Source: Horticoccus luteus (GTDB lineage Bacteria > Verrucomicrobiota > Verrucomicrobiia > Opitutales > Opitutaceae). From it: a DNA stretch of 32,000 nucleotides. The stretch lies in contig NZ_CP080507.1 in the NCBI RefSeq assembly GCF_019464535.1, positions 630,001 through 662,000 on the forward strand. Reading direction: 5' to 3'. Made by a program: the position numbers and the translations under genes. Positions 8,352 to 31,494 of this stretch are shown here, in pieces. Under the pieces are notes generated by a model. It was not told the origin of the DNA and searched no databases. It saw only the letters and a program-made list of their open reading frames with translations. The first letter of the stretch is position 1. Each line of letters starts with the position of its first letter.

Positions 8352-9188
8352 ATGCCGCGTGCCGGTAGCCTTGGCGGGCTCAAAAACATACCTAAAAGTC
8401 TTCGCAGCGCGCGTTCGCCGCGGGTGTATTTCGGCGATGTGATCTACGAACCGGGAGGGACGTGCGGGCCGCGGGTGCAGTTGGATTACCAATTGGTGGT
8501 CGTGCTGGAAGGTGAGGCGCGAGTGGACGTCGATGGCCGCGCGCGCCGCGTGGCGGCCGGCGAGGTGGGGTTGTTTCGGCCGGGCGGAAGGGAGTTTTTT
8601 CAACTCTCGCTCGCACAAAAGACGCATCACACGTGGTGCGCGGTGCATCCGGCGGTGGTGGGACGGGATCTGGCGGAGGCGTGTGGGCGGGCGCCGGCGG
8701 TGGTGCGCGTGACGCGCCGCTTCGAGCAGTTGATGGAGTTGGGGCTGGGCTTGCCGCGCGACACGGGCGAACACTCGCCGGGACTCGCGGAGGCATTGGG
8801 GCTGGCCGCGTTGCACGAGTATGTTTTTAGCGCGACCCGGCAGGCGCGGGGCGAGACGGAGGAGCCGGACGCGTTGCGGCGGGTGCTCGAGTGGATCGGC
8901 CAGGCGGGGGAGCACGCCGTCGACCTGCCGACGCTGGCGGCGGAGGCGTGCGTCTCGCGGGCGCAGTTGGTGAAACTGTTTCGCGAGCATCTGGGGACCA
9001 CGCCGATCCGATTTGTGTGGGAAACGCGCACGCGGCGCGGGGCGCAAATGTTGCGCGAGACGGGGTTGACCGTGGGCGAGGTGGCGTATCGCTGCGGGTT
9101 CCAGACGCCGTTTCATTTTTCGCGCTGGGTGAAGGAATTGTTTGGGGTGGCGCCGCGCGCGTTGCGGGCGCAGGCGTGGCGCGGGTGA
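8352..9188 (+). CDS. AraC family transcriptional regulator (cupin-like N-terminus plus AraC HTH)
   Basis: C-terminal AraC HTH: LAAEACVSRAQLVKLFREHLGTTPIRFVWETRTRRGAQMLRETGLTVGEVAYRCGFQTPFHFSRWVKELFG. It is divergent from the PhyH gene with only 25 bp between the annotated starts. An in-frame GTG at 8424 is an alternative start. Confidence 0.85.
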   Translation: MPRAGSLGGLKNIPKSLRSARSPRVYFGDVIYEPGGTCGPRVQLDYQLVVVLEGEARVDVDGRARRVAAGEVGLFRPGGREFFQLSLAQKTHHTWCAVHPAVVGRDLAEACGRAPAVVRVTRRFEQLMELGLGLPRDTGEHSPGLAEALGLAALHEYVFSATRQARGETEEPDALRRVLEWIGQAGEHAVDLPTLAAEACVSRAQLVKLFREHLGTTPIRFVWETRTRRGAQMLRETGLTVGEVAYRCGFQTPFHFSRWVKELFGVAPRALRAQAWRG

Positions 9189-10445: not shown

Positions 10446-10616
10446 GGCGCAGCATGGAGCGGCGCGAGCGGCGGCGGCAAGCGCGACGACTAGCGGCCGG
10501 CGGGCGCGCGTGGTGGCGGTAAAGCGTGAATGTTCGCGCGCGGGCGAGGCGTTTTGTGCGGCGGTTGCTTGCAGTGGCGGCGCGGGGCGTTTCATCGTGC
10601 GGGCGTTACCCAACCT

Positions 10617-15203: not shown

Positions 15204-16439
15204 TTAAGGGGAGGGTTTAAGGGAGGGGGCTTGGCTCCCTCCCTTTTCTGGATGGATCGGGCGGAAGGGAGCGACGTAGGCGGTCGGTTTGAAGCGGCCA
15301 CCTTCGGCATCAAAGCGCAGATGGCCGAGCAGGATATTGGCAAAATGCAGTTCCGTCTGGCCGTCGGGAGCACGGCGCAGGCCCACGCGTTTGCCGGCGA
15401 AGGCTTCGCCGAGGTGGTAGTTCTTTCCTTCGTGGGCGACATGGCCGCTGGTGCTGACCACCTTCACCTCGAACTCCGGGGCATAGACGATGGGTTTGTC
15501 GTGCTCGTTCAAGCGTCGGGTGCTGGGACGGTAAACCTCGGCCGGACGTTGCAGGTTCAGCGCCTCGTGCGGTCGTTCGTGGTTGTAGGTGTGCCGCCAG
15601 CGCTCGAAGCGGCGCTGCTGGGCGGTGAAGGTGGGCGAAGGAGGTTGGGTGGCCTCGGCCTTGAGATCGCGGTGCATGCGCTCGTGCGAGCCGTTGTCCT
15701 GTGGCGAGGCCGGGCGGGTGAACTCGACTTCGATGCCCTGCTCAATCCACCACACGCTCAAGGCGGAGAGCCGGCCCAGCCCGGTCGAGGCGAAGGGCGA
15801 TCCAAGGTCCACCCGGATGATCTCGGGCAGGCCGGTCTGGCGCATGAGCGCCCGGAAGGTGCCCAGGGTCCGGCGGAACTGCTGGTCGGGCTGGCCCCGC
15901 ACCGCCATGACGTAATGGCTGTAGCGGTCGCAGATGGTCAGCGGATCGCAGCGCTGGTTGTTGCCGAGCAGGAACCAGCCTTTGAAGTCCACGGTCCAGA
16001 CCTGATTGGGCTGATTGGGCACCGTCAGCGCCTGGTTGAGGGCGGGATAAACCCCGGGCCGACGGCGGCGCTTCACGCTCTGCCCGTGCCGCCGCAGGAT
16101 CTCGCCGATGGTGCTGCAAGCCGGTGGCCGTTCCACCCCGTGCTTGGTCTCCAGCAAGTCCTGGATCTTTTTCGGCCCCCAGGTCCGGTGCAGGCGACGC
16201 TCCGCCAGGACCAGCTTCTCGATCTGCGCGTCCGTGCGCTGCGGAAAACGGTGCGGGCGGTGGCTGCGCGGGCTCAAAGCCGCCAGGCCGCCTTCGGCGT
16301 AGCGTTCCAAATGCTTATAGGCCGTCTTCCGGCTGATGTTAAACTGCTCGCACAGATCCGTGATCGTGAACCGATCGGTCTGCGCCAAGCTGACGAAACG
16401 AATGATCTCTTCCATTGGGGTGGTGGTTTTCCACGGCAT
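15204..16439 (-). CDS. DDE transposase, integrase (rve) core with N-terminal HTH, IS481-like
   Basis: HTH: FTITDLCEQFNISRKTAYKHLERY. rve catalytic region: QVWTVDFKG (D), IIRVDLGSPF (D), ASPQDNGSHERMHRDLK (E). The length of 411 aa and the single ORF fit IS481-type elements. Confidence 0.9.
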   Translation of the reverse strand: MPWKTTTPMEEIIRFVSLAQTDRFTITDLCEQFNISRKTAYKHLERYAEGGLAALSPRSHRPHRFPQRTDAQIEKLVLAERRLHRTWGPKKIQDLLETKHGVERPPACSTIGEILRRHGQSVKRRRRPGVYPALNQALTVPNQPNQVWTVDFKGWFLLGNNQRCDPLTICDRYSHYVMAVRGQPDQQFRRTLGTFRALMRQTGLPEIIRVDLGSPFASTGLGRLSALSVWWIEQGIEVEFTRPASPQDNGSHERMHRDLKAEATQPPSPTFTAQQRRFERWRHTYNHERPHEALNLQRPAEVYRPSTRRLNEHDKPIVYAPEFEVKVVSTSGHVAHEGKNYHLGEAFAGKRVGLRRAPDGQTELHFANILLGHLRFDAEGGRFKPTAYVAPFRPIHPEKGGSQAPSLKPSP

Positions 16440-16509: not shown

Positions 16510-16941
16510 TCATTTCTGGAGGTCTAGCGATTCCAAAAGAGTGAAAGAAGTAACATCCTCAAGCTGGGCAAAAAACTGTTCAAAAGTGCCCGCAGTCTGG
16601 TTGACGAATCGACCTTCAATCACTGCATCAACCAAGTGGCCTCGCTTGCCCTTTTCAGCGGATGATCCCGGCCTATTTGCACCAATCCACAAACTAAGAG
16701 GATGCTTGTCATGATCGAATGCGCGTCTTGATTCATACAAGGCAGATATTGGAGACTCTAGGACGTAAAAACCACGAACCCGAACAACTTGTCCATCGAG
16801 CTCAACACGACGTTGCCACAGTTCGCTTAAGGATACTGAGCCTTCAGCCTTACGTTGTGACATGCCCGAGAGTGCCGATGCGAAGATGCCCAAGCAAACA
16901 ACACATAGAATCCAGAAGTTTGGCGTCTTGATCGATTTCAT
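16510..16941 (-). CDS. candidate immunity protein for the upstream RHS C-terminal toxin domain; N-terminal signal/anchor
   Basis: The ATG at 16939-16941 overlaps the RHS stop (16938-16940) as ATGA. The 143-aa product begins MKSIKTPNFWILCVVCLGIFASALSG (hydrophobic anchor). GC is about 45% (44 of the first 100 nt counted), against well over 60% in flanking core genes. I recognise no family. Confidence 0.6.
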   Translation of the reverse strand: MKSIKTPNFWILCVVCLGIFASALSGMSQRKAEGSVSLSELWQRRVELDGQVVRVRGFYVLESPISALYESRRAFDHDKHPLSLWIGANRPGSSAEKGKRGHLVDAVIEGRFVNQTAGTFEQFFAQLEDVTSFTLLESLDLQK

Positions 16942-19031
16942 GGGTAAGTGCCAATGGTGCGTTGAGTGGTAGACCATCCTTGATCAGTCCTGACGCCGCT
17001 GAGAACTTCGACGGTTATCCCGCTTCCGCCGGTTGCTGTCCGTCCGACGTAAAGCAAGATCGGACGCTGAAAGTCGTTGGAAGCAGAGATTACTTGGGCG
17101 ACATCTCCGTAAGCTCGCCCCGCAATCGTGTAGTTGCTGAAAGAATTGGCGGAAGGATGCGAATGATAGCCGCCAACGAATACCGTCCCGCCCGGCACAC
17201 TATAGGAGATAGATGCACCTGGAGTGACTGTCTTCCCATCCTGGACGTATGGAACACCTCCACGAACTGGCGTCGTGAAACCGTAATAGGTTACCTCATC
17301 CCGAACGTAAGAGAATATCGCGCCACTATATTCGAGGTGCTGCGGATCCGCGTTCGTCATGCGCTTTGCCAAAACGGACATCACTCCGCCGGCAGCATCT
17401 GCCGACGTGAAATCTCCATATGATGCCTGGCCGTTCGCACCTGAGACGCCACCTCGGGTTCCAGCGACCGCGACACCTCCCTCTGAGGCGATGCTCATTC
17501 CACTGTTTGGGGCTGCCTCCGCCTGCACTTGCGCGGCGGACCGGGCTGCGGCCGCGAGTGTCGCCGTAGCCGGAGCCATCTTTACATATGTATCGGTTAC
17601 GATCTCGTGTCCATTATACGTTACCCCGTTAGTCAGGGTCGCGAAAGCTGCCGCCGCTCCTGGCGTCAACGCTTTCACCTCGTTTCCATCGAGGTATATT
17701 AGTCCATTTTTTGCTGCGCTTTCGAGATACTTTCGAGCCTCGGCCTTCGCGACTCCTAGCGACGCAGCGGCCATTGACTGCTGCGCGAACGTTTCTGCCA
17801 TCCCGTTGAGCTGCTGATCACTTACTCCCGGCCCTCCAATCTGAGTTCCTCCCGCCCCTCCCTGGCCGTTCTCAGCCCACCAGACGCTCGCTGCAACCGC
17901 CCACCCGCGCTCTTCGGGCGACATGGCAGTCAGTTGCGCGGAGTATTCCTCGACGGTAAGCATGCCGAGCAGATCGATGCCATTGACCGGGTTGTTATTG
18001 CAGAAGCGGTAGAGGTTCATGCCGCCTTGCTCCCCACTGGGGTCGCGGCCGAGGAAGCGGCCGAGAGACGGCGAATAATACCGCATGCCGTAGTAAACCA
18101 AGCCGGTCTCGTCGTCGGTGTACTTCGTGGAGAAGCGGAAGGGGTTGTTCTTCGCTTGCGCGCCCTCCGCGCGCAACGACTCGCCGTAGGGGCTGTATTC
18201 GTAAGTGGCAGACTGGGTGCTGCCGACAGCGGAGAGGGTGGCCACATTGCCGTTGCCGTCGTAGCCGGGCAGGTAAGCGGTGACCGCCGTGCCGGTGTGA
18301 TCCACTTCCTGAAGCAGCGCACCAACTCCGCCGGTTGCCGTCAGGCTGCCCGCCTTGTCCAGTCCCCACGCATAGGTGCGTTGCCGGGTGCCGCTGCTGT
18401 TCAATTCCGCGATCAAGTTCCATCCTTGATAGATGAACCGCACGTCGCTTTCCAAGGACCAAGTGCTGCCGCTCCACTTTAAAACCTGCTTCACCGTGCG
18501 CCGTCCTGAGCTGTCGTAGCGAAACGTCACCCGCCGGCCCGGCAGCCCGACATTCATCGCCACCGTGCGCGTCTCCATCGCAGTCAGGCGGTTTTCTGCA
18601 TCCCAGGTGTAGTGCCAGCGACCGTCGCAGGTCACGTTGCCATCGGCATCATAGGTGATTCCTTCGGCGACCCACGGCAGAAACGCCGCCAGCAGGGAGG
18701 GGATTTCCACGGTGCCCGCCTTCGCCGCCTTCACCGCGATGCTGCTGGTATAGGCCGGGCCGTCGTTGTTATTCAACGTCACGCCGCTCGCCCAGTAGTT
18801 GCCCTGCCGGTCGGCGATCGCACCGTTGACCAGCACCTTCGCGTCCGCATCGGCGGTGCCCGAGACCGGGATATACAGATTGGGCCGCTTCGTGATCTGG
18901 TTGAGGTTGTTCACCGTCGCCGTCGCCTTCAACTCGGGATTGTCGGTCGCATTCACCTCCGTGCGATTGCCGGCTCCGTCGTAGCCATACACAAACTGCC
19001 GGTCCGGCAACGGCGCGCTCGTCGACGTCAC
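16938..19031 (-). CDS. RHS repeat protein fragment (5'-truncated): YD/RHS repeats, RHS core end, 340-aa C-terminal toxin-like domain
   Basis: YD repeats: YGYDGAGNRT, YDADGNV, WDAENRLT, FRYDSSGRR. RHS-associated core: YAWGLDKAGS...GGVGALLQ, YLPGYDGNGNV, YEYSPYGE, FRFSTKYTDDETGLVYYGMRYYSPSLGRFLGRDP. It ends in the PVNGIDLLGM variant of the PxxxxDPxGL cleavage motif (Met codon 17961-17963). The frame stays open, still YD-repeat-like, upstream to 19220, where a stop sits at 19221-19223. There is no ATG, GTG or TTG between 19220 and the GTG at 19031. Confidence 0.85.
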   Translation of the reverse strand: MTSTSAPLPDRQFVYGYDGAGNRTEVNATDNPELKATATVNNLNQITKRPNLYIPVSGTADADAKVLVNGAIADRQGNYWASGVTLNNNDGPAYTSSIAVKAAKAGTVEIPSLLAAFLPWVAEGITYDADGNVTCDGRWHYTWDAENRLTAMETRTVAMNVGLPGRRVTFRYDSSGRRTVKQVLKWSGSTWSLESDVRFIYQGWNLIAELNSSGTRQRTYAWGLDKAGSLTATGGVGALLQEVDHTGTAVTAYLPGYDGNGNVATLSAVGSTQSATYEYSPYGESLRAEGAQAKNNPFRFSTKYTDDETGLVYYGMRYYSPSLGRFLGRDPSGEQGGMNLYRFCNNNPVNGIDLLGMLTVEEYSAQLTAMSPEERGWAVAASVWWAENGQGGAGGTQIGGPGVSDQQLNGMAETFAQQSMAAASLGVAKAEARKYLESAAKNGLIYLDGNEVKALTPGAAAAFATLTNGVTYNGHEIVTDTYVKMAPATATLAAAARSAAQVQAEAAPNSGMSIASEGGVAVAGTRGGVSGANGQASYGDFTSADAAGGVMSVLAKRMTNADPQHLEYSGAIFSYVRDEVTYYGFTTPVRGGVPYVQDGKTVTPGASISYSVPGGTVFVGGYHSHPSANSFSNYTIAGRAYGDVAQVISASNDFQRPILLYVGRTATGGSGITVEVLSGVRTDQGWSTTQRTIGTYP

Positions 19032-19349: not shown

Positions 19350-22300
19350 ATGTCGCCCGCGATGTTCCGTCGTGTAATTCTTATAATCGTGGTGGTTTTG
19401 GCAGTGGGTTTGTTGGGGCGGTGGCTTTCGCACCGGACCGGCGGAGGTCCGACGAGCCCCATGGCGGCAGCGAAGAATGACGCTGGGTCGGCGGCACTCC
19501 CGGCTGCGAAGGGAACGCCGAATTCCCGCGTCGATGAGAAGCAGCCGGCTGCTTCCGCGAACTGGACGTCATTTCCTGTCTTTGGCGCGCACGGAGCGGT
19601 GACTTTGAGCGACATCCCGGCGGGGCGGTTTCACGATCAAGTGGCGCGGTTGGCGGCCGGACCGCAGGCGCGGACGCTGCACCAGCTCGAGACGTTGCAC
19701 GCGCCGCTCAATGACGTCAGATCGCTGCGCGTCGATGCGCGCGGAAGTCTGTATTACGTCTGCACGATTCCGGGTGCGCAGAAGGAGGCGATTGCGACGA
19801 CAACAAGCAGCGAGAGGAAGGCGGTGATGGAGGGCGCCATGCGGGCGGCCGGCGAGTCGCCCAGCGGCAGCCAATCGTATGCAGCCGCGGCGGGCGCGGC
19901 GGTGCCGGTCTCGGCACCTCCCATCCGGCATAGCAGACCGGGGGCGGAGAATGTCATCTATCTGAATTTCAGCGGTTATACAGTCAAAGGAACCGCGTGG
20001 AACGCGGAGCTGGCGAAGGCGGAGTTCGACTGCGTGCCTTACGATACGGATTCGGATCCGACGACGTTCAGCGCGAGCGAGCAGGCGGCGATAGTGGCGA
20101 TCTGGCAGCGGGTGGCGGAAGACTACCGGCCTTTTGATGTTGATGTGACGACGGAGCGCCCGGCGGTTTTTACCAGCCGCACGGCGCATGCCCTGATCAC
20201 GCGCAACACCGACGTGGAGTATAAACCGAATCCGGACAGCGACACCGCGAGCGGCGTGGCGTATGTCGGCGTCTTCGGCGGAGCGGATTATCAAAGCCTG
20301 AGCCCGGCGTTTATCTATTGGAATCTGCTGATCGATGTTTCCGCGATCGCGGATACGATTTCGCATGAGGTCGGCCACAATCTCGGGCTGACGCACGATG
20401 GGACGGCGACCGAGGAATACTATCGGGGCCATGGGATCGGCGAAACGTCGTGGGGGCCGTTGATGGGTGCGCCGAACAAATCGAACGTCACGCAATGGTC
20501 GAAGGGTGAGTATCGCGGGGCCAACAATCCGCAGGACGACATCGCGATCCTGACCGGAAATCTGGGGCGTCGGGCGGACGATGCGGGAGATAACGTGGCG
20601 GCGGCGAGTGAGATGGCCGCAGGCGGAGCGGGATGGACGGCGGGGGGCGTGATTGAGGCGAACACGGACAGCGATGTGTTCGCGTTTACGGCGGACTGGC
20701 CGAATGTGGCGATCACCGTTTCGCCGGACCGGCCGGCGGGGAGCGCCACGGGCGGCAACCTGGACGTGGTGGCGGAGTTGCTGGATGCGAGCGGGACGGT
20801 GGTGGCGCGGGCCGATCCGGCCAACCGTACGTCGGCGATCATCGTGCAGGATGTAGCGCCGGGTAGATATTATGTGCGAGTGAGCGCGACCGGGACGGGC
20901 AATCCGTGGGCGGATTCCCCGACGGGTTATACGAGTTACGGTTCGGTGGGCGGCTATACGATCGCGGTGGTGTCTCGTCCGCGCATCACGCCGGCCCGGA
21001 ATGTTGTGGCGCCGGGTCAGGCGATCGCGCTCGAGGGTGCGGTCGGAGGCGGTTCCGGGCTGACGTTTCGTTGGAAGAAGGACGGGACGTTCATCAATGG
21101 CGCGACGACGGCGACATTGAACGTGGGGAATGCGGGCCGCGGAGACAGCGGGGCCTATACGCTGGAAATCACGGATGGAAATTCGGTCACGCGGCGAGGC
21201 ACGGCGTTTGTACAGGTGGCGCCGGCGCAAACGGAATTGCGGATGTGGGGCAGTAACGACCGGGGGCAGACAGCGGTGCCGGCGGACTTGCACACGGCGG
21301 TGAGCGTGGCCGCGGGCGATGATAACACTTTGGTGATCGAGGCGGATGGGACGGTGCTTGGTTGGGGGCTCAACGACTCAGGCGACATGCGTGTGCCGGA
21401 CGGTCTCCATGCCGTAGTCGCAGTGGCAACGGCGGGAGAGCACGCGCTCGCGTTGCGGGCAGACGGGACCGTGATGAGTTGGGGACAAGCCGATGGTTTC
21501 AGTGTGAGGGGCGTGCCGGCAGATCTCGCGGACGTCGTGGCGGTGGCGACGGGCGGGAAGCATAATCTCGCGTTGAAAGCGGATGGGACGGTCGTCGCCT
21601 GGGGGGGCGACGAGAAGGGCCAGACTGACGTGCCGGATGGGCTGGTGGATGTGGTGGCCGTGGCCGCGGGGGATGAGCATTCGCTCGCGTTGAAACGGGA
21701 TGGGAAGGTGGTCGCCTGGGGCTCGAATTATGGCGGAGCGACGTATGTGCCGACTGGCCTGACGAATGTCGTGGCGATCAGCGCTGCGGCGAACGGATCT
21801 CTCGCGCTGAAAGCGGATGGGACGGTGGTGTTTTGGGGCATTGGCTACAATGGCCCGAGCAATATTCCGGCGGATCTGGCGCAGGTGAGCGGAGTGGCGT
21901 TGGGCGCGGAACACGTGATTGCGCGGAAGGGGGACGGGACGGTGGTGGGCTGGGGCTCGAATTCCTTTGGCCAGACGGATAATTCGCTCGGCTTGACCGA
22001 CGTGATTGGCGTCGCGGCAGGGCGGGCGCACACGGGGGCGTTGCGCGACGCGAGCCGCGATCACGTGCCCACGATCACTGTGGGGCCGCTGACGCAGAGC
22101 GTGGCAGAGGGCACGGACGTGACGTTGAGCGTGGAGGCGAGCGGCGGGGGAGCGCAGTTGTTTTATCAATGGCGGAAGAACGGGGAAGTCATCGCGGGCG
22201 CGACGACGGCCACGTTGGCGCTGGACGAAGTCACTTCCGCGGCCGGGGGTAGCTACGACATCATCGTGACCGACTGGCTCGGCAGGACGCCCTCGTCGCC

Positions 22301-25300
22301 CGCCGTGCTGACCGTGAATCCCTTGCCGGGCGTCACGAGCCGCAGCAATGCGCGACAGGTTTTGAGTCCGGGCGACACGCTGACATTGAACGTGGCGGCG
22401 ACGGGCGCCGGTGCGTTGCATTATCAGTGGCGGCGCAACGGGCGCGTGCTGGCGGGCGAGACCGGCGCAACGTTGAGCAAGCCGGCCATGGCCGTGGCGG
22501 ACAGCGGCACGTACATCGTGGAAGTGACCGACGACTGGGGGACGCGACGGGTGCCGTTCTTTGTGAACGTCATGCCCGCGTCAACGCGCGTCGTCATGTG
22601 GGGCGACGGCGGCGATCCGGCGCTCGGTGCGGTGCCGGCAGATCTGACGGATGCGGTGGCGCTGGCGGCCGGCTATCGCTTTTCGCTCGCGCTGCGGCGC
22701 GACGGCACGGTGGTGGGCTGGGGCCAGTCCAATGGTTGGGGCCAGGCGACACCGCCCGCCGGGCTGACCGACGTGGTGGCCATTGCGGGTGGGTTGTATC
22801 ATGCGCTGGCGTTGCGGGCGGATGGGACGGTGGTGGCTTGGGGAAGCCGGGGCGGCGATGCTTTGACGCTGCCGAGCGGTCTCTCCGACGTCACCGCGTT
22901 GGCCGGCGGTTCGGGGAATTCGACGTCGCTAAGGTTAAACGGCAAGGTCGCGACTTGGGGAGACGGAGGCTCCTACGGGCCGATGCCGGCGAACCTCCGC
23001 GATGTCATTGCGATCGCTTCCGGGGCTTATCACCGGTTGGCGTTGAAATCGGACGGCACAGTGGTCGCGTGGGGTTCGAACACTCGCGGGGAATCCACGG
23101 TGCCGGCGGGTCTCAGCGATGTGACTGCGATCGCGGCGGGCGGACAGATTTCGTTGGCGCTAAGAGCGGACGGCACGGTGGTCGCCTGGGGCGACAAGCC
23201 ATTTCCGGGCACGCAAATGCCGACGGACTTGAAGGACGTCGTGGCGATTGCGGTCGGGAGCACCGTGGCGGTGGCGTTGAAGAGCAATGGCACGCTGGTG
23301 ACGTGGGGTGCCAAAGTCGATGGGGCGAACATTCCCGCGGCGGTGACCAATACCCTCGCGGTCGCCATGGGCACCGCGCATGGGCTGGCGTTATGCGATA
23401 TGAGCCGGGACACCGCACCGGTGTTGACGACGGCTCCCGCGGACCAAGTGGTTGCGGAAGGACGCGATGCGACGTTCACGGTGGTGGTCAACGGCAGTGC
23501 GCCGCTTTCATATCAATGGCGGAAGGACGGCGTGCCGGTGGCCGGCGCGACAAATGCCACGCTGACCATCGTCGCCGCGGTGCCGAGCGAAGCAGGCCGA
23601 TACGACGTCGTGGCGACAAATTTGAGGGGCACGGTGACATCGCCGGCCGCCACCCTCACCGTCCGCCCGTTGCCAATTCTCACGAGCTGGTCGCCGGCGC
23701 GGCAGCGAGTCGCGCAGGGCCAGTCGTTTTCGTTGGCGGCAGCGGCGACGGGCACGGGGGGTTTGCATTACGAGTGGCGGCACGATGGCCGCGTGATTCC
23801 CGGGGCGACCGCGGCGACGTTCGAACGAGCGGAGACATCGTCGACGGACGGCGGACTTTATACGGTGGTCGTCACGGACGACGTGGGCAGCCGCAGCTAC
23901 GTGAGCGTGGTTGTGGTCGCGCCCACGGCGACCGAAGTGCGGGCGTGGGGCTCCAACGGCTATGGACAAACGAATGTGCCGGCCAATCTTGGGAACGTCG
24001 TGTCGGTGGCGGCCGCAGGCGAGCATTCGCTCGCGTTGCAGGGAGACGGCAAGGTCGTCGCGTGGGGCCGCAATGCCTACGGGGAATCCACCGTGCCCGG
24101 CGCCCTGGGGCCGGTCGTGGCGATTGCGGGCGGCACAACGTTTTCGGTGGCGGTGACGGACGCGGGCCGCGTGGTGGCGTGGGGCGACAACGCTGCCGGG
24201 CAGTTGAACGTGCCCGGCGACCTCAGCGAGGTCGTCGCGGTGGCCGCGGGCGAGGGATTTATCGTGGCGCTGAAAGCTGATGGCACCGTGCGCGCGTGGG
24301 GCACCAATCGTTTCGGAGAGTCGACCCCGCCGAGCAGGCTGGGGAACGTGACGGCGATCGCCGCCGGTTCGAGCAACGCACTGGCCGTCAAGGCGGATGG
24401 CACGGTGATCAGATGGGGTTCGAATGACGCGGCCTTGGACGTGCCGGCAGACTTGACGGATGTTGCGAACGTGGCGAGCGGAGGGCTTTATGCGATCGCG
24501 ACCAAGAGAGATGGGACAGTCGCCAGTTGGGGTGGCGGTCTGGCGCCCGCGCCGGCCGGGACCAGCACTGTCGCGACGGTGGCGGTGGGGCCGGGCCACG
24601 CCTTGGTGGCCCGGACAGATGGAAGTGTCGTGGGCTGGGCGAACAGCAACGTTCCTCAGACGACGCCGCCGGCCAATCTCGCGAACGTAATCGCGGTGGC
24701 GGCGGGCAACGGGCATGAGCTCGCTTTGCGCGACGCGTCCGGGGGCAAGGCGCCGGTCATCCTGACGCAGCCGCGGGATCAAACGGTGGTCGAGGGAACC
24801 GCGACGATCTTGTCGGTGAACGCATCGGGAGGACCGTCGGTGTTGCGCTATCAGTGGCAAAAGGACGGCGCGGAGGTGGCCGGAGCCACGACGGCAGTGC
24901 TGGCACTCACCAACGTCACCGGTGGCGGGAGCGGGCGCTATACGGTCGTGGTGAGCAACGACCTGGGCACGGTCACTTCGCTGGCCGCGACGTTGACGGT
25001 GCGGCTGCTGCCGGTCATCAGCGCCAGCAGCGCGGCGCGACTAGTGATCGCGCCCGGGCAACCCCTGGCGCTGTTTGTCACCGCGAGCGGAACGGGAAGT
25101 TTGCATTACCAATGGTATAAAGATGGCTCCGCTCTGCCGGGAGCGACGGCCGCCACTTATAACAAAAACGCCGCCGTCGTGACGGACAGTGGAAATTATT
25201 GGGTGGAGGTGAGCGATGAGGTGGGGGTGCGCGGGTCCGCGAAAATGAGCGTCCTCGTCAGTGGGGTGCGGACGGAGATCCGCGGGTGGGGAAAGGGCGT

Positions 25301-28300
25301 CGGCGCAAACGTGCCCGCGGGGATTTATGATGCGGTCGCGGTGGTGGCGGGAAATTTTTACGCCCTGGCGTTGCGGGCGGATGGGACGGTGGTCAGCTGG
25401 GGCTCTAGTTATGGCGGAGCGGCGCAGGTGCCCGCTGGCCTCACCAATGTGATCGGCCTGGCGGGGGGCAGCTCGCAGTCCTATGCGTGGCGCGCCGACG
25501 GGACCGTGGTGGGTTGGGGCCAGCCGTCGGGCGAGATGAACGTGCCGCAGGGGCTTTCCGACGTGATCGCTTTGGCGGCGGGGGATTTTCATGTGCTCGC
25601 TTTGCGGGGCGATGGCACGGTCGTGGCGTGGGGCAACGCGACGCAAGGAGCCCAAGCCGTCCCCGCGGGACTGGCTCACGTCACGGCGATCGCGGCGGGT
25701 CGCGCGCATTCGCTCGCTCTGAAATCCGATGGCACGGTGACGGGCTGGGGATCGAATGCGTGGGGACAGGCCACCCCGCCGGCCGGGCTTAAGCAAGTGG
25801 TGGCGATCGCGGCGGGTGGCGATCTTTCCGTGGCGTTGAAACGCGATGGCACGGTGGTCACGTGGGGTCTCGGGGCGGCGGATATCACCAGGCCGCCGCA
25901 GGGGCTGACCGACGTGGTCAAGATTGCCGCGGGCAATGCCTTCGCGCTGGCCGTGCGCGCGAATGGGAGCGTCACGGCCTGGGGCTACGATACGAGCCTC
26001 GCGGTGAGCACGGCACCGGCGTTGCGCGACGTGGTCAACGTCGCCGGCGGATATGACTTCGGGCTGGCCCTGCGCATGGCCGCCAACGATCCCGCACCGG
26101 TGATCACCGCTCAGCCCATTCCCGCCACAGCTGTGGAGGGCTCGTCGGCGACGTTAAACATTGCAGTCAAGGCCGGCGATTCCTCTCCCGTGTTTGAGTG
26201 GAGGAAAAACGGCGTTTCGCTCGGTCAGTCGATTCAGTCGCAGCTCACGCTGACGAACATCACGCCAGCGGATGCGGGCGGCTATTCGGTCGTCGTGACC
26301 AACAGTGGCGGCTCGGTGACGAGCGAGGCGGTGGCTTTGACCGTGGTGCCGCTGCCGAGGATCGTGCGGCCGGCGAAACCGCGGCAGCTTTTGCGCGCGG
26401 GGGAGCCGCTGACGCTGGCGATCGCGGCGGAAGGCACCGGGACTTTGCACTACCAGTGGTTCCGCAACCGGCGGCCGATCGACGGAGCCACTCAGGCGAG
26501 TTACGTGCGGCCGTCGTGCACGGTGGCGGACAAGGGACTTTATTGGGTGGAGGTCAGCGACGATGTCGGCCTGCGGCGGAGCCGCCTCCTCAGTGTAAGC
26601 GTAGCGCCACAGGTGAGTGCCGTGGTGGCGTGGGGCGATGTGCTGACCTACAATTTGCTGCCCGACAAGGTAACGGATGTAGCCGAGATGGCGGGCGGCA
26701 CCCAGTTCGCGTTCTATTTGCATGCGGATGGCACGGTCAGCGTGGTCGGCAATCCGGGCGTGGCCCACGTGCCGGCCGGACTGGCAGGAGTGGTCGCCAT
26801 CGGAGCGGGCGGTTGGCAAGCGATGGCCGTGAAGGCCGATGGTTCGGTGGTCCAGTGTGGTAGCAACCTATATCCGGCCCCGGCGTACTTGACCGATGTC
26901 GTGGCCGTGGCCGCGGGCAATGGACATTGTCTCGCGTTGCGGGCGGACGGCACCGTGGTCGCATGGGGTGACAACAGAAACAACCAGACCACCGTGCCGG
27001 CGGGTTTGACCAACGTCGTGGCCATTAGCGCCGGGCAGGATTCCTCAGCGGCGGTGACCGCGGACGGCACGCTCTATTGCTGGGGTTACGGAGGTTCATG
27101 GATAGTCACGCGGGATGCCGTCGCGGTGGCGACGGGAACCGATGCCACGCTGGTCCTCAAGAGCGACGGAACGGTCTTTATGCAGAGATACGGATCGCAT
27201 GGGGAGTCGAGCGTGCCGGCGGGGCTCGCGAACGTGGCCGAAGTGGTCGCCGGTTCGCTGCATCTGGTGGCGTTGAAATCCGACGGCACGGTGGTGGCGT
27301 GGGGCCAATCGTCCCTCGGAAAAACCGTGGTGCCCGCCGGTCTCGACCGCGTCGTGGGCATAGCGGCAGGCAGCGATTTTTCGCTCGCCCTGCGCGAGGC
27401 GGCACCGGCGAGTGCGCCCGCGATCGTGACTGCGCCGGTCGGCCAACGCGTGCTGGCGGGACGCTCAGCGGAATTTCGCGTGAGCGTCGTGGGAACGCCG
27501 GCCCTGACTTTCCAGTGGAAAAAGAACGGAGCCGCACTTCCCGGAGAAACGGCGGCGACACTGAAACTAGCGGCCGTGGAGGCTTCCGATGCGGGCGCCT
27601 ACAGCGTCACCGTGACCAATGCGCAAGGCAGCGCGACCAGTGCAGCGGCGACGCTCACGGTCGTGCCGCGTTCCGCATTTGCGGGTAGCTATTTCGGGAC
27701 GTTTGGCTCGGGCGGCGCGTGGGGATTGCACGTGCGCGACGACGGCACGGCGGTGCTGGTCGCGGACTTGCGGAGCCGGCAGAGCGCGCTCGTGGTGGAG
27801 TTCAGCGTGGCGGCGGACGGCACGTTTGACGCACTGGGCGCGGAGATGCGCTCTTCGCTACAAACGCCGGCGGGCGGGCGTTGGGCGGCGGCGCCGCTGG
27901 CAAGCGATTTCTCCCTCACCGGACAGATCGGCGGAAACGGTGCGATCGCCGGCAACCTGACGGGCCTGGGCGAAACGTTCTCGGGCGCGCTCGACGCGGC
28001 GAACGGTGCAGCGCACGCGCGAGCGGGCTATTATACAGCGACGGCGCTCGCGGCTGACGCCGGCGAAACATATCTCGTGATCGGTCCGTCCGGGCAAGCC
28101 GTCGCGGTGGTCACAGCGCCGGGGCGGGTCGAGAGTGCGGCCGGCATCGTCGACGCCGGGGGGCAGTTGGCGGCGACGAGCGGCTCGCACTCTTCGATCA
28201 ACGTTGCGGTGGGTTCGGCTGGAGAAAATGTCAGCGTGAGCGTGCTTCCGGCGGGCGCGGCGGCGGCGATTCGTTACGCGGGATTGTCCGATCGCGTGGC

Positions 28301-29105
28301 GCCGGTGGCGCGGTTCACCAATCTCTCGATTCGCAGCCGCGCTGGAGCGGGATCGCAGACCCTGATTGTCGGTTTCGTGGTCAACGGCGCGGGCACGATG
28401 CCGCTTTTGGTGCGGGGCATCGGTCCCGCGCTGAGCGCGTTTGGCGTCACCAATGCGGTGCCTGATCCGCGTCTGCGATTGTTCGACGCGCACGGGACGG
28501 AAGTGGATGGGAACGACAACTGGAACGGCTCGCTGGCGTTGCGCGACGAGTTCCGGATCGTGGGGGCGTTCGAACCGGCGGCCGACTCCAAGGATGCCGC
28601 GCTTTACTCCGAGCGGCCGGCGGGAGCCTATACGTTCCACGCGGTGACCAATGACGGGACGGAAGGCGTGGCGTTGGCGGAACTGTATGTCGCCGACGCG
28701 GGACCGGGCACCACGGATCTGGTGAACATCTCGGCGCGGACTTACGTGGGCACGGGAGACGATGTGTTGATCGCGGGCTTCGTCGTGGCCGGCAACGCGC
28801 CGAAGCGGTTGTTGATCCGCGGATTGGGGCCGACACTGGCGGGGTATGGCGTGACGGGCGTGCTGGCGAACCCGGTGCTGCGTGTTTTTGAAGGCGGGAC
28901 GGAAATCGCGCTGAACGACGACTGGCAGGGCGGGGCGGACTTGAAGGCCGCGTTTGCGACGGTGGGGGCGGCGCCGATGGCGAGCGACTCAAGTCAGGAT
29001 GCGGCGTTGCTGATCACGCTGGAGCCGGGAATCTACACGGCACAGGTGAGCGGCGTGAGTGGCTCCGCGGGGGTGGCGTTGGTGGAAATCTTCGCGCTGC
29101 CGTGA
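19350..29105 (+). CDS. giant secreted metzincin-type zinc metalloprotease with PPC domain, five Ig-RCC1 propeller-Ig super-repeats and a tandem C-terminal module
   Basis: ATG at 19350; TTG at 19326 and ATG at 19362 are alternatives. Signal/anchor: FRRVILIIVVVLAVGLLG. Metzincin motif HEVGHNLGLTHD starts at 20364. Approximate modules:
- 20578-20970: pre-peptidase C-terminal-like domain (DSDVFAFTA...GRYYVRVSATG).
- 20975-27665: five units of Ig-like domain, seven RCC1-like blades of about 39 aa (WGxNxxGQxxVPxxLxxVVAVAAGxxHxLALxxDGTVxx), then an Ig-like domain.
- 27665-28290: Ala/Gly-rich unassigned region.
- 28314-29102: two copies of the same C-terminal module as the M4 protease. Confidence 0.85.
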   Translation: MSPAMFRRVILIIVVVLAVGLLGRWLSHRTGGGPTSPMAAAKNDAGSAALPAAKGTPNSRVDEKQPAASANWTSFPVFGAHGAVTLSDIPAGRFHDQVARLAAGPQARTLHQLETLHAPLNDVRSLRVDARGSLYYVCTIPGAQKEAIATTTSSERKAVMEGAMRAAGESPSGSQSYAAAAGAAVPVSAPPIRHSRPGAENVIYLNFSGYTVKGTAWNAELAKAEFDCVPYDTDSDPTTFSASEQAAIVAIWQRVAEDYRPFDVDVTTERPAVFTSRTAHALITRNTDVEYKPNPDSDTASGVAYVGVFGGADYQSLSPAFIYWNLLIDVSAIADTISHEVGHNLGLTHDGTATEEYYRGHGIGETSWGPLMGAPNKSNVTQWSKGEYRGANNPQDDIAILTGNLGRRADDAGDNVAAASEMAAGGAGWTAGGVIEANTDSDVFAFTADWPNVAITVSPDRPAGSATGGNLDVVAELLDASGTVVARADPANRTSAIIVQDVAPGRYYVRVSATGTGNPWADSPTGYTSYGSVGGYTIAVVSRPRITPARNVVAPGQAIALEGAVGGGSGLTFRWKKDGTFINGATTATLNVGNAGRGDSGAYTLEITDGNSVTRRGTAFVQVAPAQTELRMWGSNDRGQTAVPADLHTAVSVAAGDDNTLVIEADGTVLGWGLNDSGDMRVPDGLHAVVAVATAGEHALALRADGTVMSWGQADGFSVRGVPADLADVVAVATGGKHNLALKADGTVVAWGGDEKGQTDVPDGLVDVVAVAAGDEHSLALKRDGKVVAWGSNYGGATYVPTGLTNVVAISAAANGSLALKADGTVVFWGIGYNGPSNIPADLAQVSGVALGAEHVIARKGDGTVVGWGSNSFGQTDNSLGLTDVIGVAAGRAHTGALRDASRDHVPTITVGPLTQSVAEGTDVTLSVEASGGGAQLFYQWRKNGEVIAGATTATLALDEVTSAAGGSYDIIVTDWLGRTPSSPAVLTVNPLPGVTSRSNARQVLSPGDTLTLNVAATGAGALHYQWRRNGRVLAGETGATLSKPAMAVADSGTYIVEVTDDWGTRRVPFFVNVMPASTRVVMWGDGGDPALGAVPADLTDAVALAAGYRFSLALRRDGTVVGWGQSNGWGQATPPAGLTDVVAIAGGLYHALALRADGTVVAWGSRGGDALTLPSGLSDVTALAGGSGNSTSLRLNGKVATWGDGGSYGPMPANLRDVIAIASGAYHRLALKSDGTVVAWGSNTRGESTVPAGLSDVTAIAAGGQISLALRADGTVVAWGDKPFPGTQMPTDLKDVVAIAVGSTVAVALKSNGTLVTWGAKVDGANIPAAVTNTLAVAMGTAHGLALCDMSRDTAPVLTTAPADQVVAEGRDATFTVVVNGSAPLSYQWRKDGVPVAGATNATLTIVAAVPSEAGRYDVVATNLRGTVTSPAATLTVRPLPILTSWSPARQRVAQGQSFSLAAAATGTGGLHYEWRHDGRVIPGATAATFERAETSSTDGGLYTVVVTDDVGSRSYVSVVVVAPTATEVRAWGSNGYGQTNVPANLGNVVSVAAAGEHSLALQGDGKVVAWGRNAYGESTVPGALGPVVAIAGGTTFSVAVTDAGRVVAWGDNAAGQLNVPGDLSEVVAVAAGEGFIVALKADGTVRAWGTNRFGESTPPSRLGNVTAIAAGSSNALAVKADGTVIRWGSNDAALDVPADLTDVANVASGGLYAIATKRDGTVASWGGGLAPAPAGTSTVATVAVGPGHALVARTDGSVVGWANSNVPQTTPPANLANVIAVAAGNGHELALRDASGGKAPVILTQPRDQTVVEGTATILSVNASGGPSVLRYQWQKDGAEVAGATTAVLALTNVTGGGSGRYTVVVSNDLGTVTSLAATLTVRLLPVISASSAARLVIAPGQPLALFVTASGTGSLHYQWYKDGSALPGATAATYNKNAAVVTDSGNYWVEVSDEVGVRGSAKMSVLVSGVRTEIRGWGKGVGANVPAGIYDAVAVVAGNFYALALRADGTVVSWGSSYGGAAQVPAGLTNVIGLAGGSSQSYAWRADGTVVGWGQPSGEMNVPQGLSDVIALAAGDFHVLALRGDGTVVAWGNATQGAQAVPAGLAHVTAIAAGRAHSLALKSDGTVTGWGSNAWGQATPPAGLKQVVAIAAGGDLSVALKRDGTVVTWGLGAADITRPPQGLTDVVKIAAGNAFALAVRANGSVTAWGYDTSLAVSTAPALRDVVNVAGGYDFGLALRMAANDPAPVITAQPIPATAVEGSSATLNIAVKAGDSSPVFEWRKNGVSLGQSIQSQLTLTNITPADAGGYSVVVTNSGGSVTSEAVALTVVPLPRIVRPAKPRQLLRAGEPLTLAIAAEGTGTLHYQWFRNRRPIDGATQASYVRPSCTVADKGLYWVEVSDDVGLRRSRLLSVSVAPQVSAVVAWGDVLTYNLLPDKVTDVAEMAGGTQFAFYLHADGTVSVVGNPGVAHVPAGLAGVVAIGAGGWQAMAVKADGSVVQCGSNLYPAPAYLTDVVAVAAGNGHCLALRADGTVVAWGDNRNNQTTVPAGLTNVVAISAGQDSSAAVTADGTLYCWGYGGSWIVTRDAVAVATGTDATLVLKSDGTVFMQRYGSHGESSVPAGLANVAEVVAGSLHLVALKSDGTVVAWGQSSLGKTVVPAGLDRVVGIAAGSDFSLALREAAPASAPAIVTAPVGQRVLAGRSAEFRVSVVGTPALTFQWKKNGAALPGETAATLKLAAVEASDAGAYSVTVTNAQGSATSAAATLTVVPRSAFAGSYFGTFGSGGAWGLHVRDDGTAVLVADLRSRQSALVVEFSVAADGTFDALGAEMRSSLQTPAGGRWAAAPLASDFSLTGQIGGNGAIAGNLTGLGETFSGALDAANGAAHARAGYYTATALAADAGETYLVIGPSGQAVAVVTAPGRVESAAGIVDAGGQLAATSGSHSSINVAVGSAGENVSVSVLPAGAAAAIRYAGLSDRVAPVARFTNLSIRSRAGAGSQTLIVGFVVNGAGTMPLLVRGIGPALSAFGVTNAVPDPRLRLFDAHGTEVDGNDNWNGSLALRDEFRIVGAFEPAADSKDAALYSERPAGAYTFHAVTNDGTEGVALAELYVADAGPGTTDLVNISARTYVGTGDDVLIAGFVVAGNAPKRLLIRGLGPTLAGYGVTGVLANPVLRVFEGGTEIALNDDWQGGADLKAAFATVGAAPMASDSSQDAALLITLEPGIYTAQVSGVSGSAGVALVEIFALP
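20975..27665 (+). repeat. five intragenic tandem super-repeats of ~1.34-1.35 kb (Ig, 7-bladed RCC1-like propeller, Ig)
   Basis: The first-blade Trp codons of successive propellers are at 21246, 22599, 23946, 25287 and 26631. Spacings are 1353, 1347, 1341 and 1344 nt, all multiples of 3. Within each propeller the blade period is about 117 nt. Strings such as gcggatgggacggtggt recur. Confidence 0.85.
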
Positions 29106-29179: not shown

Positions 29180-30481
29180 ATGTTGCCCCTCGCCGAAAAC
29201 TCTCCTTCGCTCGCGGACGCCGCCCTGGTCACGCCACGCCCCGAGTCGCCGGCCACGGCGAATTGCCAGTTGCTCTACTTCACTTCTTCCAGCGCCACGG
29301 AGGACGGGGCCGTGCTGGCGGCGATTACGGACGAGTATTCAACGAAGGAGGGCGGAGCGAGTCTCGCGCGCATCGACCGGCAGGCGCACGCGATGGAGCC
29401 GCTCGCGATTTTTGAGGGGCCGGCGGTGCAGGCGTATCCTTATTTCGCGCGGCCGCGCGCGGCGGATCCGGCCAAGGAGTATCTTTACAACGGTCCGGTC
29501 GCGACGCACGGGTTGAACAAATCGAGCCCGTGCCTGCATCCGGCGTCGGGGGATTTGTTTTTCGTGTGGGTGCGTGAGGATGGGTGCAATCAACTCGATT
29601 GCGTGAATCTGCACTCGGGGCTGCGGCGGCAGGTGACGGAGTTTCCGGCGGATCGCACGGTGGCGTATTGTCATCTCGATTGCCTGGGCGCGCATCTGCT
29701 CGTGGCCTTGGCGGATGCGCGGGTGCTGGCTCTGGGCGCGAAGCGGGACAGCAATCGCGGAGTGTCGGAGGCGTTTGGGCGCCTCGGGTTGACGACGCGG
29801 CTCGTGGAGGTGGAGGTGGCGTCGGGCGCGAGCGAAGTGCGTTGGGAAGACCAGGGCTGGGTCACGCACGTGCAATATCATCCGCAGCATCGCGACACCG
29901 TGTTGTTTAATCGCGAATGGACCTGGCCGCTGGGGACGCAGCGCATGTGGCTCAAGCAGCGGGGCGAACCGCCGGTGCAGGTGCGCCGTCCGGAGCGGCC
30001 GGTTCAGTTCCGGGTGTCGCCCGATCTGGCGCTCGACGATGTGGCGCATGAAGTGTGGCAGGAGGACGGCACGGCAATCATCTACCACGGCATGCAGTGG
30101 GACGCGGGCGATTTTCCGGAGCAATTCGTCGGGCGCGCGCCTGTCAATGCGACGGCGCCGTTGCAGGAGATTTCTCTGCCGCGCGAGGTGGTGTCGTTTT
30201 ACGGACATTTCTATCCGAGCGCGACCGGCGATTTCGTGATCACGGATGCCGTGGCGAACGAGCGCGGGCGGGCGCAGCGCAAGGGCAATTTGATTTCGCG
30301 GCTGGACATGGACTGGGTGAACGGGTCGATGCGCGTGACGCCGTTGTGCGAGAGCAACGCGTCGTGGCATACGCAGGACAATCATCCGCATCCGGTGCTC
30401 TCACCCGATGAGAGTGAAGTGTTGTTTACGTCGGACGGCAGCGGCGTGCGGCAGATTTACTCGGTGCCGGTGGCGCCGTGA
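29180..30481 (+). CDS. oligogalacturonide lyase (PL22)-like beta-propeller protein
   Basis: Resemblance from memory to Ogl-type enzymes: HPQHRDTVLF...RMWL, HEVWQEDGTAIIYHG, and the C-terminal SWHTQDNHPHPVLSPDESEVLFTSDGSGVRQIYSVPV (compare THPHPSFTPDDKQILFTSD in enterobacterial Ogl). No signal peptide is evident. Confidence 0.6.
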   Translation: MLPLAENSPSLADAALVTPRPESPATANCQLLYFTSSSATEDGAVLAAITDEYSTKEGGASLARIDRQAHAMEPLAIFEGPAVQAYPYFARPRAADPAKEYLYNGPVATHGLNKSSPCLHPASGDLFFVWVREDGCNQLDCVNLHSGLRRQVTEFPADRTVAYCHLDCLGAHLLVALADARVLALGAKRDSNRGVSEAFGRLGLTTRLVEVEVASGASEVRWEDQGWVTHVQYHPQHRDTVLFNREWTWPLGTQRMWLKQRGEPPVQVRRPERPVQFRVSPDLALDDVAHEVWQEDGTAIIYHGMQWDAGDFPEQFVGRAPVNATAPLQEISLPREVVSFYGHFYPSATGDFVITDAVANERGRAQRKGNLISRLDMDWVNGSMRVTPLCESNASWHTQDNHPHPVLSPDESEVLFTSDGSGVRQIYSVPVAP

Positions 30482-30720: not shown

Positions 30721-31494
30721 ATGCTCACTTACGATCAGGTGCAATTGTTTGACCGCGACGGCTACGTGCTCGTGCCGGACGTGTTTACGCCGCAGGAAAT
30801 CGAAATCCTTGTCGCCAACGTGGGTGGCGCCCGCACGAAGAAGCACGAGGGCAACATGCCCGATGCGGCGGGGCGTTCGAGCAAGCTCTCGCTGTGGGCC
30901 GACATCGGCGACGATGTGTTTGGGGCGGTGAGCGCGAGTCCGCGCGTGGTGAACAACGCGCGCATCTTGTTGCGCGAGGAAGTTTATCACTGGCACAGCA
31001 AAGTGATGCTGAAGGAGCCGCGCGTGGGCGGGGCGTGGGAGTGGCATCAGGATTACGGATATTGGTATGGCGACGGCTGTCTCTACCCGCGGATGATCTC
31101 GTGCATGATCGCGCTGGACGCAGCGACGCGCGAGAACGGGTGTTTGAAGGTGATTCCCGGTTCGCATCTGCTCGGGCGTTTCGACCACGGGCGCGTGGGC
31201 CAGCAGGCGGGCGCGGATCAGGAGCGCGTGGCCGCGGTGGCGGAGCGGCTGGGGGTGGTGTATTGCGAAGCTCCCGCGGGAAGCGCGCTGTTTTTCCACG
31301 GCAACACGTTTCATGCGTCCGAGGCGAATCTATCGGACCGGCCGCGGCGCGCTTACATTTGCTGCTACAACGCGTTTTCCAACGTGCCGTATGGCGGCCA
31401 CGGGCACGGGCGGCCGGAGCCGATCGCGGTTGCTCCGGATGATGCGATTTTGCGATTCACCACGGCGAGTGAGCCGACGACGGCGGCGCGGTGA
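30721..31494 (+). CDS. phytanoyl-CoA dioxygenase (PhyH) family Fe(II)/2-oxoglutarate-dependent oxygenase
   Basis: FDRDGYVLVPDVFTPQEIEIL. HxD in WEWHQDYGYW. GCLKVIPGSHLLG. Distal His in FFHGNTFHAS. Confidence 0.8.
   Translation: MLTYDQVQLFDRDGYVLVPDVFTPQEIEILVANVGGARTKKHEGNMPDAAGRSSKLSLWADIGDDVFGAVSASPRVVNNARILLREEVYHWHSKVMLKEPRVGGAWEWHQDYGYWYGDGCLYPRMISCMIALDAATRENGCLKVIPGSHLLGRFDHGRVGQQAGADQERVAAVAERLGVVYCEAPAGSALFFHGNTFHASEANLSDRPRRAYICCYNAFSNVPYGGHGHGRPEPIAVAPDDAILRFTTASEPTTAAR

Follow-up and report, generated by a model that had tools for sequence, protein, structure and literature searches.

What does a metalloprotease do with five copies of one three-domain unit behind its catalytic domain? 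The question is raised by a stretch of 32,000 nucleotides (nt) from Horticoccus luteus (contig NZ_CP080507.1, positions 630,001 to 662,000; the whole stretch is called the window in the following). An intact open reading frame (ORF) at positions 19350..29105 of its plus strand encodes a protein of 3,251 amino acids (aa), counted from ATG 19350. This protein, termed the giant protease here, very probably consists of a hydrophobic N-terminus, a pro-like domain, a metzincin domain, a beta-sandwich of the pre-peptidase C-terminal (PPC) type, five consecutive cassettes of two immunoglobulin-like (Ig) domains with a seven-bladed propeller between them, a linker and a tandem jelly-roll tail. A first-pass annotation of the sequence had described a protein of about 3250 aa with a signal or anchor, a metzincin and a PPC-like domain in this order, and then five repeated units. 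Size and order were confirmed; the anatomy was incomplete in that the pro-like domain (aa 84 to ~170) and the last 475 aa (aa 2776-3251, linker and tail) had been omitted. The features are given below with the kind of evidence for each (AF2, AlphaFold2 model; pLDDT, predicted local distance difference test).

19350..19430, plus strand: hydrophobic helix, aa 7-25, RRVILIIVVVLAVGLLGRW, Sec signal or signal-anchor (translation)
19431..19598, plus strand: linker rich in Ala, Pro and Gly, aa 28-83 (composition)
19599..19904, plus strand: conserved pro-like domain, aa 84 to ~170, then a low-confidence linker (alignment, AF2)
19905..20639, plus strand: metzincin catalytic domain, aa 186-430 (Pfam, alignment, AF2, Foldseek)
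20640..20984, plus strand: PPC-type (collagen-binding-domain-like) beta-sandwich, aa 431-545 (Foldseek)
20985..22340, plus strand: cassette 1, with Ig-A 20988-21233, BLIP-II-type seven-bladed propeller 21234-22064, Ig-B 22065-22337
22341..23687, plus strand: cassette 2, with Ig-A 22344-22586, propeller 22587-23414, Ig-B 23415-23684
23688..25025, plus strand: cassette 3, with Ig-A 23688-23933, propeller 23934-24746, Ig-B 24750-25022
25026..26369, plus strand: cassette 4, with Ig-A 25029-25274, propeller 25275-26090, Ig-B 26094-26366
26370..27680, plus strand: cassette 5, with Ig-A 26373-26615, propeller 26622-27410, Ig-B 27414-27680
27681..28304, plus strand: orphan beta-rich linker joining the last Ig domain to the tail, aa ~2778-2985, 208 aa (AF2, pLDDT 37-88)
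28305..29105, plus strand: tandem jelly-roll tail, repeats at aa ~2986-3120 and ~3121-3251, ending in ...VEIFALP followed by the stop codon

The Ig-Propeller-Ig Cassettes

When the units were delimited by anchoring on the conserved tryptophan motifs of the Ig domains, five were obtained (aa 546-997, 998-1446, 1447-1892, 1893-2340 and 2341-2790). They are collinear from end to end, measure 446-452 aa each, which agrees with the five units of 447-451 aa described before, and share 37-46% identity in pairwise comparisons. Pfam searches with the whole protein returned WD40_RLD (E = 1.5e-161) and RCC1_2 (E = 1.2e-156, 21 stretches above threshold) for the propellers, and Ig_3 (E = 5e-82, 270.9 bits) and I-set (E = 2e-66, 220.7 bits), both passing the curated cut-off, for the Ig domains.

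A hidden Markov model (HMM) of the blade recognized six full blades in every unit, repeating every 39-40 aa. The seventh blade is split between the two ends of the propeller, with a "WG" strand on the N-terminal side and a half of the form "P.GL..V..IA.G..H.LALR" on the C-terminal side, which corresponds to a velcro closure. The count from the sequence HMM is thus seven blades per unit and 35 in the protein, as first proposed with a period of ~39 aa. In searches of the PDB the propeller of cassette 2, and likewise the whole cassette, matched BLIP-II (3QHY, 1JTD, 9T9P) at E = 1e-39 to 1e-40 (E = 1.3e-39 for the isolated propeller), whereas the match to eukaryotic RCC1 was far weaker (E = 1e-11 to 1e-13). 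RCC1 and BLIP-II are treated as a single propeller group in the literature, and BLIP-II is known as a secreted tight binder. Since the match to BLIP-II exceeds that to RCC1 by so much, the short-bladed propellers are assigned, by sequence, to the known BLIP-II subclass of this group. The repeats had been called unusually short and RCC1-like; they are short and RCC1-like, but with respect to BLIP-II (E = 1e-39) they are not unusual.

The ten Ig domains belong to the I-set/Ig_3 group and alternate between two types, with identities of 42-43% within a type and 31% between the types, so that the earlier distinction of two Ig types holds. Their nearest relatives of solved structure are Ig-like tail proteins of phages, e.g., of Shigella phage Sf14. 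HMMs for type A and type B, built on the copies of the window, gave the same alternation in proteins outside the training set. Because the two types stay distinct and alternate, also in unrelated proteins, the unit of Ig-A, propeller and Ig-B must have been duplicated as a block, in agreement with the first interpretation.

Reading Frame and Start Codon

TTG 19326 and ATG 19350 are the candidate starts of the ORF on the plus strand, and the stop lies at 29105. The G+C content at third codon positions (GC3) was 0.77-0.79 across the body of the ORF; for the first 83 codons, which include the linker of aa 28-83, it was 0.67, versus 0.58 for the non-coding stretch upstream in the same frame. From residue 84 onward the giant protease is identical to QYM79529.1 / WP_220163509.1 of Horticoccus luteus, whose gene is located on a contig of 4,320,198 bp; in NCBI, WP_220163509.1 comprises 3,168 aa and is named only "immunoglobulin domain-containing protein". 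In the NCBI model the start is GTG 19599, 83 codons downstream of ATG 19350, so that the hydrophobic N-terminal helix is lost. In most full-length homologues of the head (the region in front of the cassettes), a hydrophobic helix or signal peptide starts 130-235 residues ahead of a conserved HSRPG motif; in the protein of the window, the distance from ATG 19350 to HSRPG is 194 residues. For this reason the true start is more likely ATG 19350 than GTG 19599. The Kyte-Doolittle maximum within the first 60 aa was 2.56, and hydrophobic N-termini or classical signal peptides were found throughout the head family.

The Protease Head

The zinc motif HEVGHNLGLTHD, of the type HExxHxxGxxHD, is located at aa 339-350 (nt 20364-20399). 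A Met-turn, WGPLMGAP (with PLMG), follows downstream of the third His, as judged by position in the sequence, at aa 368-375 (nt 20451-20474). In an alignment of 47 head sequences, the residues H, E, H, H and D of the zinc motif and the M-G of the Met-turn were invariant. The Pfam family Reprolysin_3 scored 24.4 bits versus a cut-off of 22.4, which is marginal and concerns profile positions 74-123 alone; Reprolysin_5 and Reprolysin_4 stayed below their cut-offs, and the giant protease possesses no disintegrin domain. The AF2 model of aa 60-545 (mean pLDDT 90.6, predicted TM-score 0.91) consisted of a helical pro-like domain, the catalytic domain (pLDDT > 90) and a beta-sandwich. On these grounds the assignment of the head to the metzincin clan appears sound, and the protein is predicted to be proteolytically active, all catalytic residues being present.

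The pro-like domain could be aligned over 46 homologues, with L42, L54 and G73 (numbering of alignment A1) nearly invariant. In the AF2 model it is helical, with pLDDT values of 95-98. A Pfam scan gave no match for this region, and a Cys or Asp "switch" was absent from its invariant and nearly invariant alignment columns. The domain may serve as a propeptide (zymogen form) or as a folding aid.

The best Foldseek matches of the head model fell on the PPC domain, with probability 1.00 and TMt values of 0.67-0.79 to 5sv5, 3jqw and 1nqd. The PPC/collagen-binding-domain fold is thereby confirmed at the level of the model; the Pfam profile PPC (PF04151) fell short of its cut-off (18.4 versus 25.9 bits). 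A cargo protein of the type IX secretion system was considered and rejected: the type A sorting-domain profile TIGR04183 scored 22.7 bits versus a threshold of 23, and the match (aa 471-515, nt ~20760-20894) falls within the PPC domain instead of at the extreme end of the protein. This near-threshold match probably reflects relatedness of fold and not a sorting signal. Among the relatives, P0075 does possess PF18962.

The C-Terminal Linker and Tail

For aa 2776-2941, the linker region in front of the tail, neither a Pfam match nor a homologue at E <= 1e-3 was found, and for this reason the linker is treated as lineage-specific. The tail is made up of two repeats with 44% identity to each other (E = 6e-26), modelled by AF2 as two jelly-roll sandwiches with pLDDT > 90. 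Its Foldseek neighbours were PNGase-type domains, the P3 double jelly-roll of PRD1 and the tandem collagen-binding domains of ColG; no family was found for it in Pfam or NCBIfam. Homologues of the tail numbered at least 1,438, mostly from Opitutaceae, and 90 of the 120 best (P0121-P0240) stop exactly at a conserved ...E[VI]Y[ED]xP, the proline being the final residue and ...EVYEVP the usual form. The tail occurs behind Ig, NHL, RCC1, fn3, RHS and M10 protease domains and also stands alone; in five fusions with TonB_C it is placed directly after the signal peptide.

Within the window, an HMM of the tail matched the ORF of the giant protease and one other ORF only:

2818..7014, plus strand: M4 thermolysin-like protease, 1,398 aa (Pfam Peptidase_M4, Peptidase_M4_C, FTP, Ig_3)

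The layout of this protein parallels that of the giant protease, with anchor, protease, middle region, Ig domain and tandem tail. Its tail (aa 1103-1398, nt ~6124-7011) is 44% identical to that of the giant protease (E = 6e-52). The M4 protease gene lies 12 kb upstream of the giant-protease gene, and its large product, taken to be exported, carries a propeptide motif of the FTP type. The middle region of 400 aa gave only a sub-threshold match to PD40 (E = 0.055), so that no propeller of this type is claimed for it. The GC content of the gene is 0.55-0.60 versus 0.64-0.70 in the flanks; a value so far below the flanks suggests a foreign origin of the gene.

Relatives and Age of the Arrays

One cassette was used as query in an exhaustive search of 1.84 billion cluster representatives (50% identity), and 18,245 representatives were found at E < 1e-30. 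The best 150 of these were parsed with the custom domain HMMs. P0243 is the protein of the window; among the 149 others, 26 contained at least two cassettes of the Ig-A-propeller-Ig-B form (aPb), 65 showed other alternations of propellers and Ig domains, 29 consisted mostly of propellers and 29 of Ig domains only. A head of the window type precedes the cassettes in six of these 149 (P0241, P0242, P0246, P0255, P0260 and P0308). P0241 (MBI2514185.1, from a metagenome-assembled genome of Opitutae) comprises 6,732 aa with 12 cassettes by counting of Ig pairs, P0242 comprises 6,538 aa with 13 cassettes, and P0255 is a protein from a metagenome-assembled genome of Phycisphaerae. P0267, P0386 and P0387 have HExxHxxGxxH near the N-terminus, where Pfam reported matrixin (M10) for P0267 and P0387. 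P0274 has NHL repeats in place of a protease head, and several cassette proteins possess FG-GAP tails. In sequence terms the cassette array is thus portable, following heads of the window type, M10-like heads and NHL domains. The first-pass annotation had named no characterised protein of this architecture, and we found none either; the architecture is, however, recurrent, with dozens of such proteins in the databases, and is not unique. Two further observations were made on the relatives: the zinc motif of P0241 and P0246 reads HELGHNLALSHD, with Ala replacing the Gly of the motif, and in several of them the place of the jelly-roll tail is taken by a conserved C-terminal domain, "...DPDxDGxxNLxEYALGxDP...".

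A neighbour-joining tree calculated from 52 cassettes joined the units of P0241 to those of P0246 by position from u1 to u7, and the counterpart from P0242 was usually their sister. The cassettes of the window, old and diverged copies, were on long branches and were no closer to each other than to the cassettes of P0255 (~45% identity). Since the cassettes of relatives pair position by position, the arrays are judged from their sequences to be old and ordered, with each copy maintained separately, unlike homogenised extender repeats. Positional conservation together with divergence suggests that each copy has its own role.

With the head (aa 1-545) as query, 439 proteins were found at E <= 1e-5, with best identities of 46-48% among the matches listed. 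The homologues listed were mostly from Verrucomicrobiota (Opitutaceae, Limisphaerales), were 500-950 aa long and carried varied C-terminal additions. A profile search of species-representative genomes, in whose results the H. luteus source genome was absent, yielded at least 596 head loci, of which the best 80 were parsed. The core of catalytic and PPC domain ("H-c") was present in all 80. The head is a conserved unit that hundreds of genomes encode, either alone or joined to other extensions. One of the loci, L005, encodes head, PPC domain, one cassette and tail, i.e., a one-cassette version of the protein of the window.

Comparison with Known Systems

BLIP-II of Streptomyces exfoliatus (1JTD, 3QHY) resembles the propellers in having seven blades of ~40 aa, in belonging to the RCC1/BLIP-II group and in the propeller-wide match mentioned above. 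It is itself an exported protein-binding module, an inhibitor of beta-lactamase; the likeness here rests on the overall propeller sequence. BLIP-II is a single free propeller of ~280 aa, whereas five propellers, flanked by Ig domains, are chained behind a protease in the present case.

The clostridial collagenases ColG and ColH (M9 domain, PKD domains and tandem collagen-binding domains) follow the same plan as the giant protease, with a zinc protease at the N-terminus, spacers of the beta-sandwich type and a pair of jelly rolls at the C-terminus. In ColG and ColH this pair, a member of the PPC superfamily, holds the enzyme on its substrate, and structures of collagen-binding domains match both the PPC domain and the tail of the giant protease. 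The differences concern the protease, which is an M9 gluzincin and not a metzincin, and the spacers, one or two PKD domains versus five Ig-propeller-Ig cassettes; furthermore, the identity between the tail and collagen-binding domains is only ~7-10%, and the likeness drawn here is one of fold and layout. By analogy, the giant protease would be most like the modular clostridial collagenases in its way of working, with a spacer logic like that of giant adhesins; it is a member of neither family.

Closest to the head are proteins of Verrucomicrobiota and Gammaproteobacteria called "zinc-dependent metalloprotease family protein" (Reprolysin_3/_5 and PPC), with 35-51% identity, HExxHxxGxxHD and Met-turn; they are mostly 500-1,400 aa long and have Flg_new_2, PKD, cadherin-like or Ig extensions. 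P0241, P0242 and P0246 have the window-type head followed by aPb cassettes, but contain 7 to 13 of them, possess an additional Ig domain of the He_PIG type past the PPC domain, and have another C-terminus without the jelly-roll tail. A search of the accessible literature revealed no paper on a protease with Ig-propeller-Ig arrays; nearest were the RCC1-type giant proteins of Oscillospiraceae, which have propellers of the RCC1 superfamily made of RCC1 (PF00415) repeats alone, without Ig flanks or protease head. Effectors with RCC1 repeats from Legionella have propellers of the same superfamily, but are small, are injected into host cells, and also lack Ig flanks and a protease head.

Two other systems were considered and rejected. 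A giant RTX adhesin of type I secretion did not fit, there being no RTX or HemolysinCabind match in Pfam and the repeats showing the low mutual identity given above. A polymorphic toxin of the Rhs type did not fit either, as the C-terminus is a conserved tail common to more than 1,400 proteins and not a variable toxin domain; the neighbouring ORF with RHS repeats, at 16938..19031 on the minus strand, constitutes a gene of its own.

Proposed Function

There is about an even chance, in our estimate, that the giant protease is a Sec-exported modular zinc metalloprotease with the cassette chain as a multivalent binding stalk and the tail as a binding or anchoring module. The head of ~500 aa (pro-like, metzincin and PPC domains) would act as a zinc protease, and the tail, on the model of the ColG collagen-binding domains, would fix one end of the protein to a polymer or a component of the envelope. 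Ten Ig domains and five propellers could form a stalk of tens of nanometres, as estimated from typical domain sizes. Every propeller would present its own protein-binding face in the fashion of BLIP-II, and the chain would capture or position targets for the protease head, beyond passive spacing. The mechanism of the binding stalk, taken alone, is more tentative, with chances somewhat below even. The suggestion of the first-pass annotation, a multivalent binding scaffold or an extended surface fibre, is plausible.

Several points weigh against this proposal. Cellular location is its weakest part. We infer Sec export from the sequence; the N-terminus shows no obvious signal-peptidase site and looks more like an uncleaved anchor than like a classical signal peptide. 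Of the "secreted metzincin" of the first-pass annotation, the second word stands and the first is doubtful. The protein could be tethered to the inner membrane, in which case "surface" and "secreted" would be wrong, and the fusions of the tail with TonB_C are just as compatible with a place in the periplasm or the envelope. Concerning the head, Foldseek gave weak metzincin matches to pro-meprin (7uab) and an astacin zymogen (8a28), with probability 0.85 and poor TM-scores, and snake-venom metalloproteinases of the PDB aligned solely over 20-26 aa at the zinc motif (E = 0.08-0.9). Since solved members match in the region of the zinc motif only, membership in M12B (adamalysin/reprolysin) proper is not established. 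Protein binding by these propellers is presumed by analogy; in the propeller of cassette 5, the most degenerate of the five, three blades are weak; and a propeller was present in only three of the 80 best head loci, so that the array is dispensable for the function of the head. Finally, neither sequence searches of the PDB nor Pfam, NCBIfam and the literature yielded a characterised protein with this architecture.

The main rival explanation is that the chain is merely a rigid extender between protease and anchor, comparable to that of RTX adhesins, with propellers devoid of specificity. The array is indeed joined to unrelated heads (M12-like, M10, NHL) and tails (FG-GAP, jelly-roll), as would be expected of a generic module, and the conserved positions of the blades are those of the structural core motif. 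But extender repeats of giant adhesins are typically near-identical, whereas the cassettes are 37-46% identical and conserved position by position in relatives, which suggests a role for each copy, and the nearest solved relative of the propellers, BLIP-II, is a dedicated protein binder. A passive stalk is therefore considered unlikely. Improbable is an adhesin or surface fibre with a vestigial protease head, serving attachment, e.g., to plant roots or other cells. In its favour, adhesins typically contain Ig arrays, propellers and jelly-roll binding domains, and relatives of the organism are reported as root-associated isolates; however, zinc ligands, catalytic Glu and Met-turn are intact here and invariant across the family, and the model of the head is very confident.

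The strong similarity to BLIP-II could also point to an array of inhibitors or decoys, in which the propellers neutralise foreign secreted enzymes (beta-lactamases, enzymes of competitors) and the head degrades the catch. Diverged, positionally conserved copies would suit different targets, but propellers of the BLIP-II type are very common in bacteria, as the 18,245 representatives at E < 1e-30 indicate, and the majority probably do not inhibit enzymes; this explanation appears very improbable. An artefact, i.e., a repeat number inflated by mis-assembly, a pseudogene or a chance ORF, is scarcely credible, and no point in its support was found. The longest exact DNA word common to any two units was 29 nt, and blastn of unit versus unit gave short segments only, with 67-92% identity; with units so different in their protein sequences, an assembly artefact of the repeat number, considered as a possibility in the first-pass annotation, is excluded. 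In addition, the frame runs for 9.8 kb without a stop, its GC3 is that of coding DNA, the source contig measures 4.32 Mb and all domain scores are far beyond chance.

All building blocks of the giant protease (metzincin, PPC, Ig, propeller of the BLIP-II type, jelly roll) are known. For a recurrent Ig-A-propeller-Ig-B cassette in ordered arrays of 2 to 13 behind metalloprotease heads, no prior description was found. Verrucomicrobiota are abundant but poorly studied in soil and on roots, and such arrays are candidates for multivalent, multi-specific protein recognition in this phylum; a separate job for each cassette can be argued, since positions are conserved among proteins that reach 6,700 aa. 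In its most far-reaching form, which seems quite unlikely, the proposal would make the cassettes a multi-specific recognition array with one foreign protein (exoenzyme of a competitor, surface protein of prey or host) per propeller, the whole a targeted extracellular capture-and-cleave device and the tail a module, not described before and used throughout Opitutaceae, for docking such cargo to a polymer or the envelope. Coupling of a recognition array to a metzincin head (M12-like and M10) would then have occurred at least twice. The presence of the tail on three different protease families offers a separate testable lead on the placement of exoproteins in these bacteria. The cassette array and the tail without a family are thus two points worth following up, and experiments are possible, since the soil bacterium Horticoccus luteus is available in culture and its genome is closed.

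Other Genes of the Window

The RHS-repeat ORF (697 aa) is situated immediately upstream of the giant-protease gene in divergent orientation. It adjoins an IS481-type transposase (rve, HTH_32, LZ_Tnp_IS481) at 15204..16439 on the minus strand, and the GC content falls to 0.56-0.58 between 16 and 18 kb in the window. Transposase and RHS ORF may represent a disrupted Rhs element. The flanking genes at 7259..8326 (minus strand), 8352..9188, 29180..30481 and 30721..31494 (all plus strand) encode two PhyH-type dioxygenases, an AraC-type regulator and an oligogalacturonate-lyase-like protein; they have no evident tie to the giant protease. An ORF at 10530..12623 (plus strand) encodes a fusion of 697 aa between a GFO/IDH/MocA oxidoreductase and an aldo-keto reductase. 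The antisense ORF at 9594..12491 (minus strand) is genuine at its 3' end only, where it encodes a SpoU methylase (~9594-10400, minus strand).

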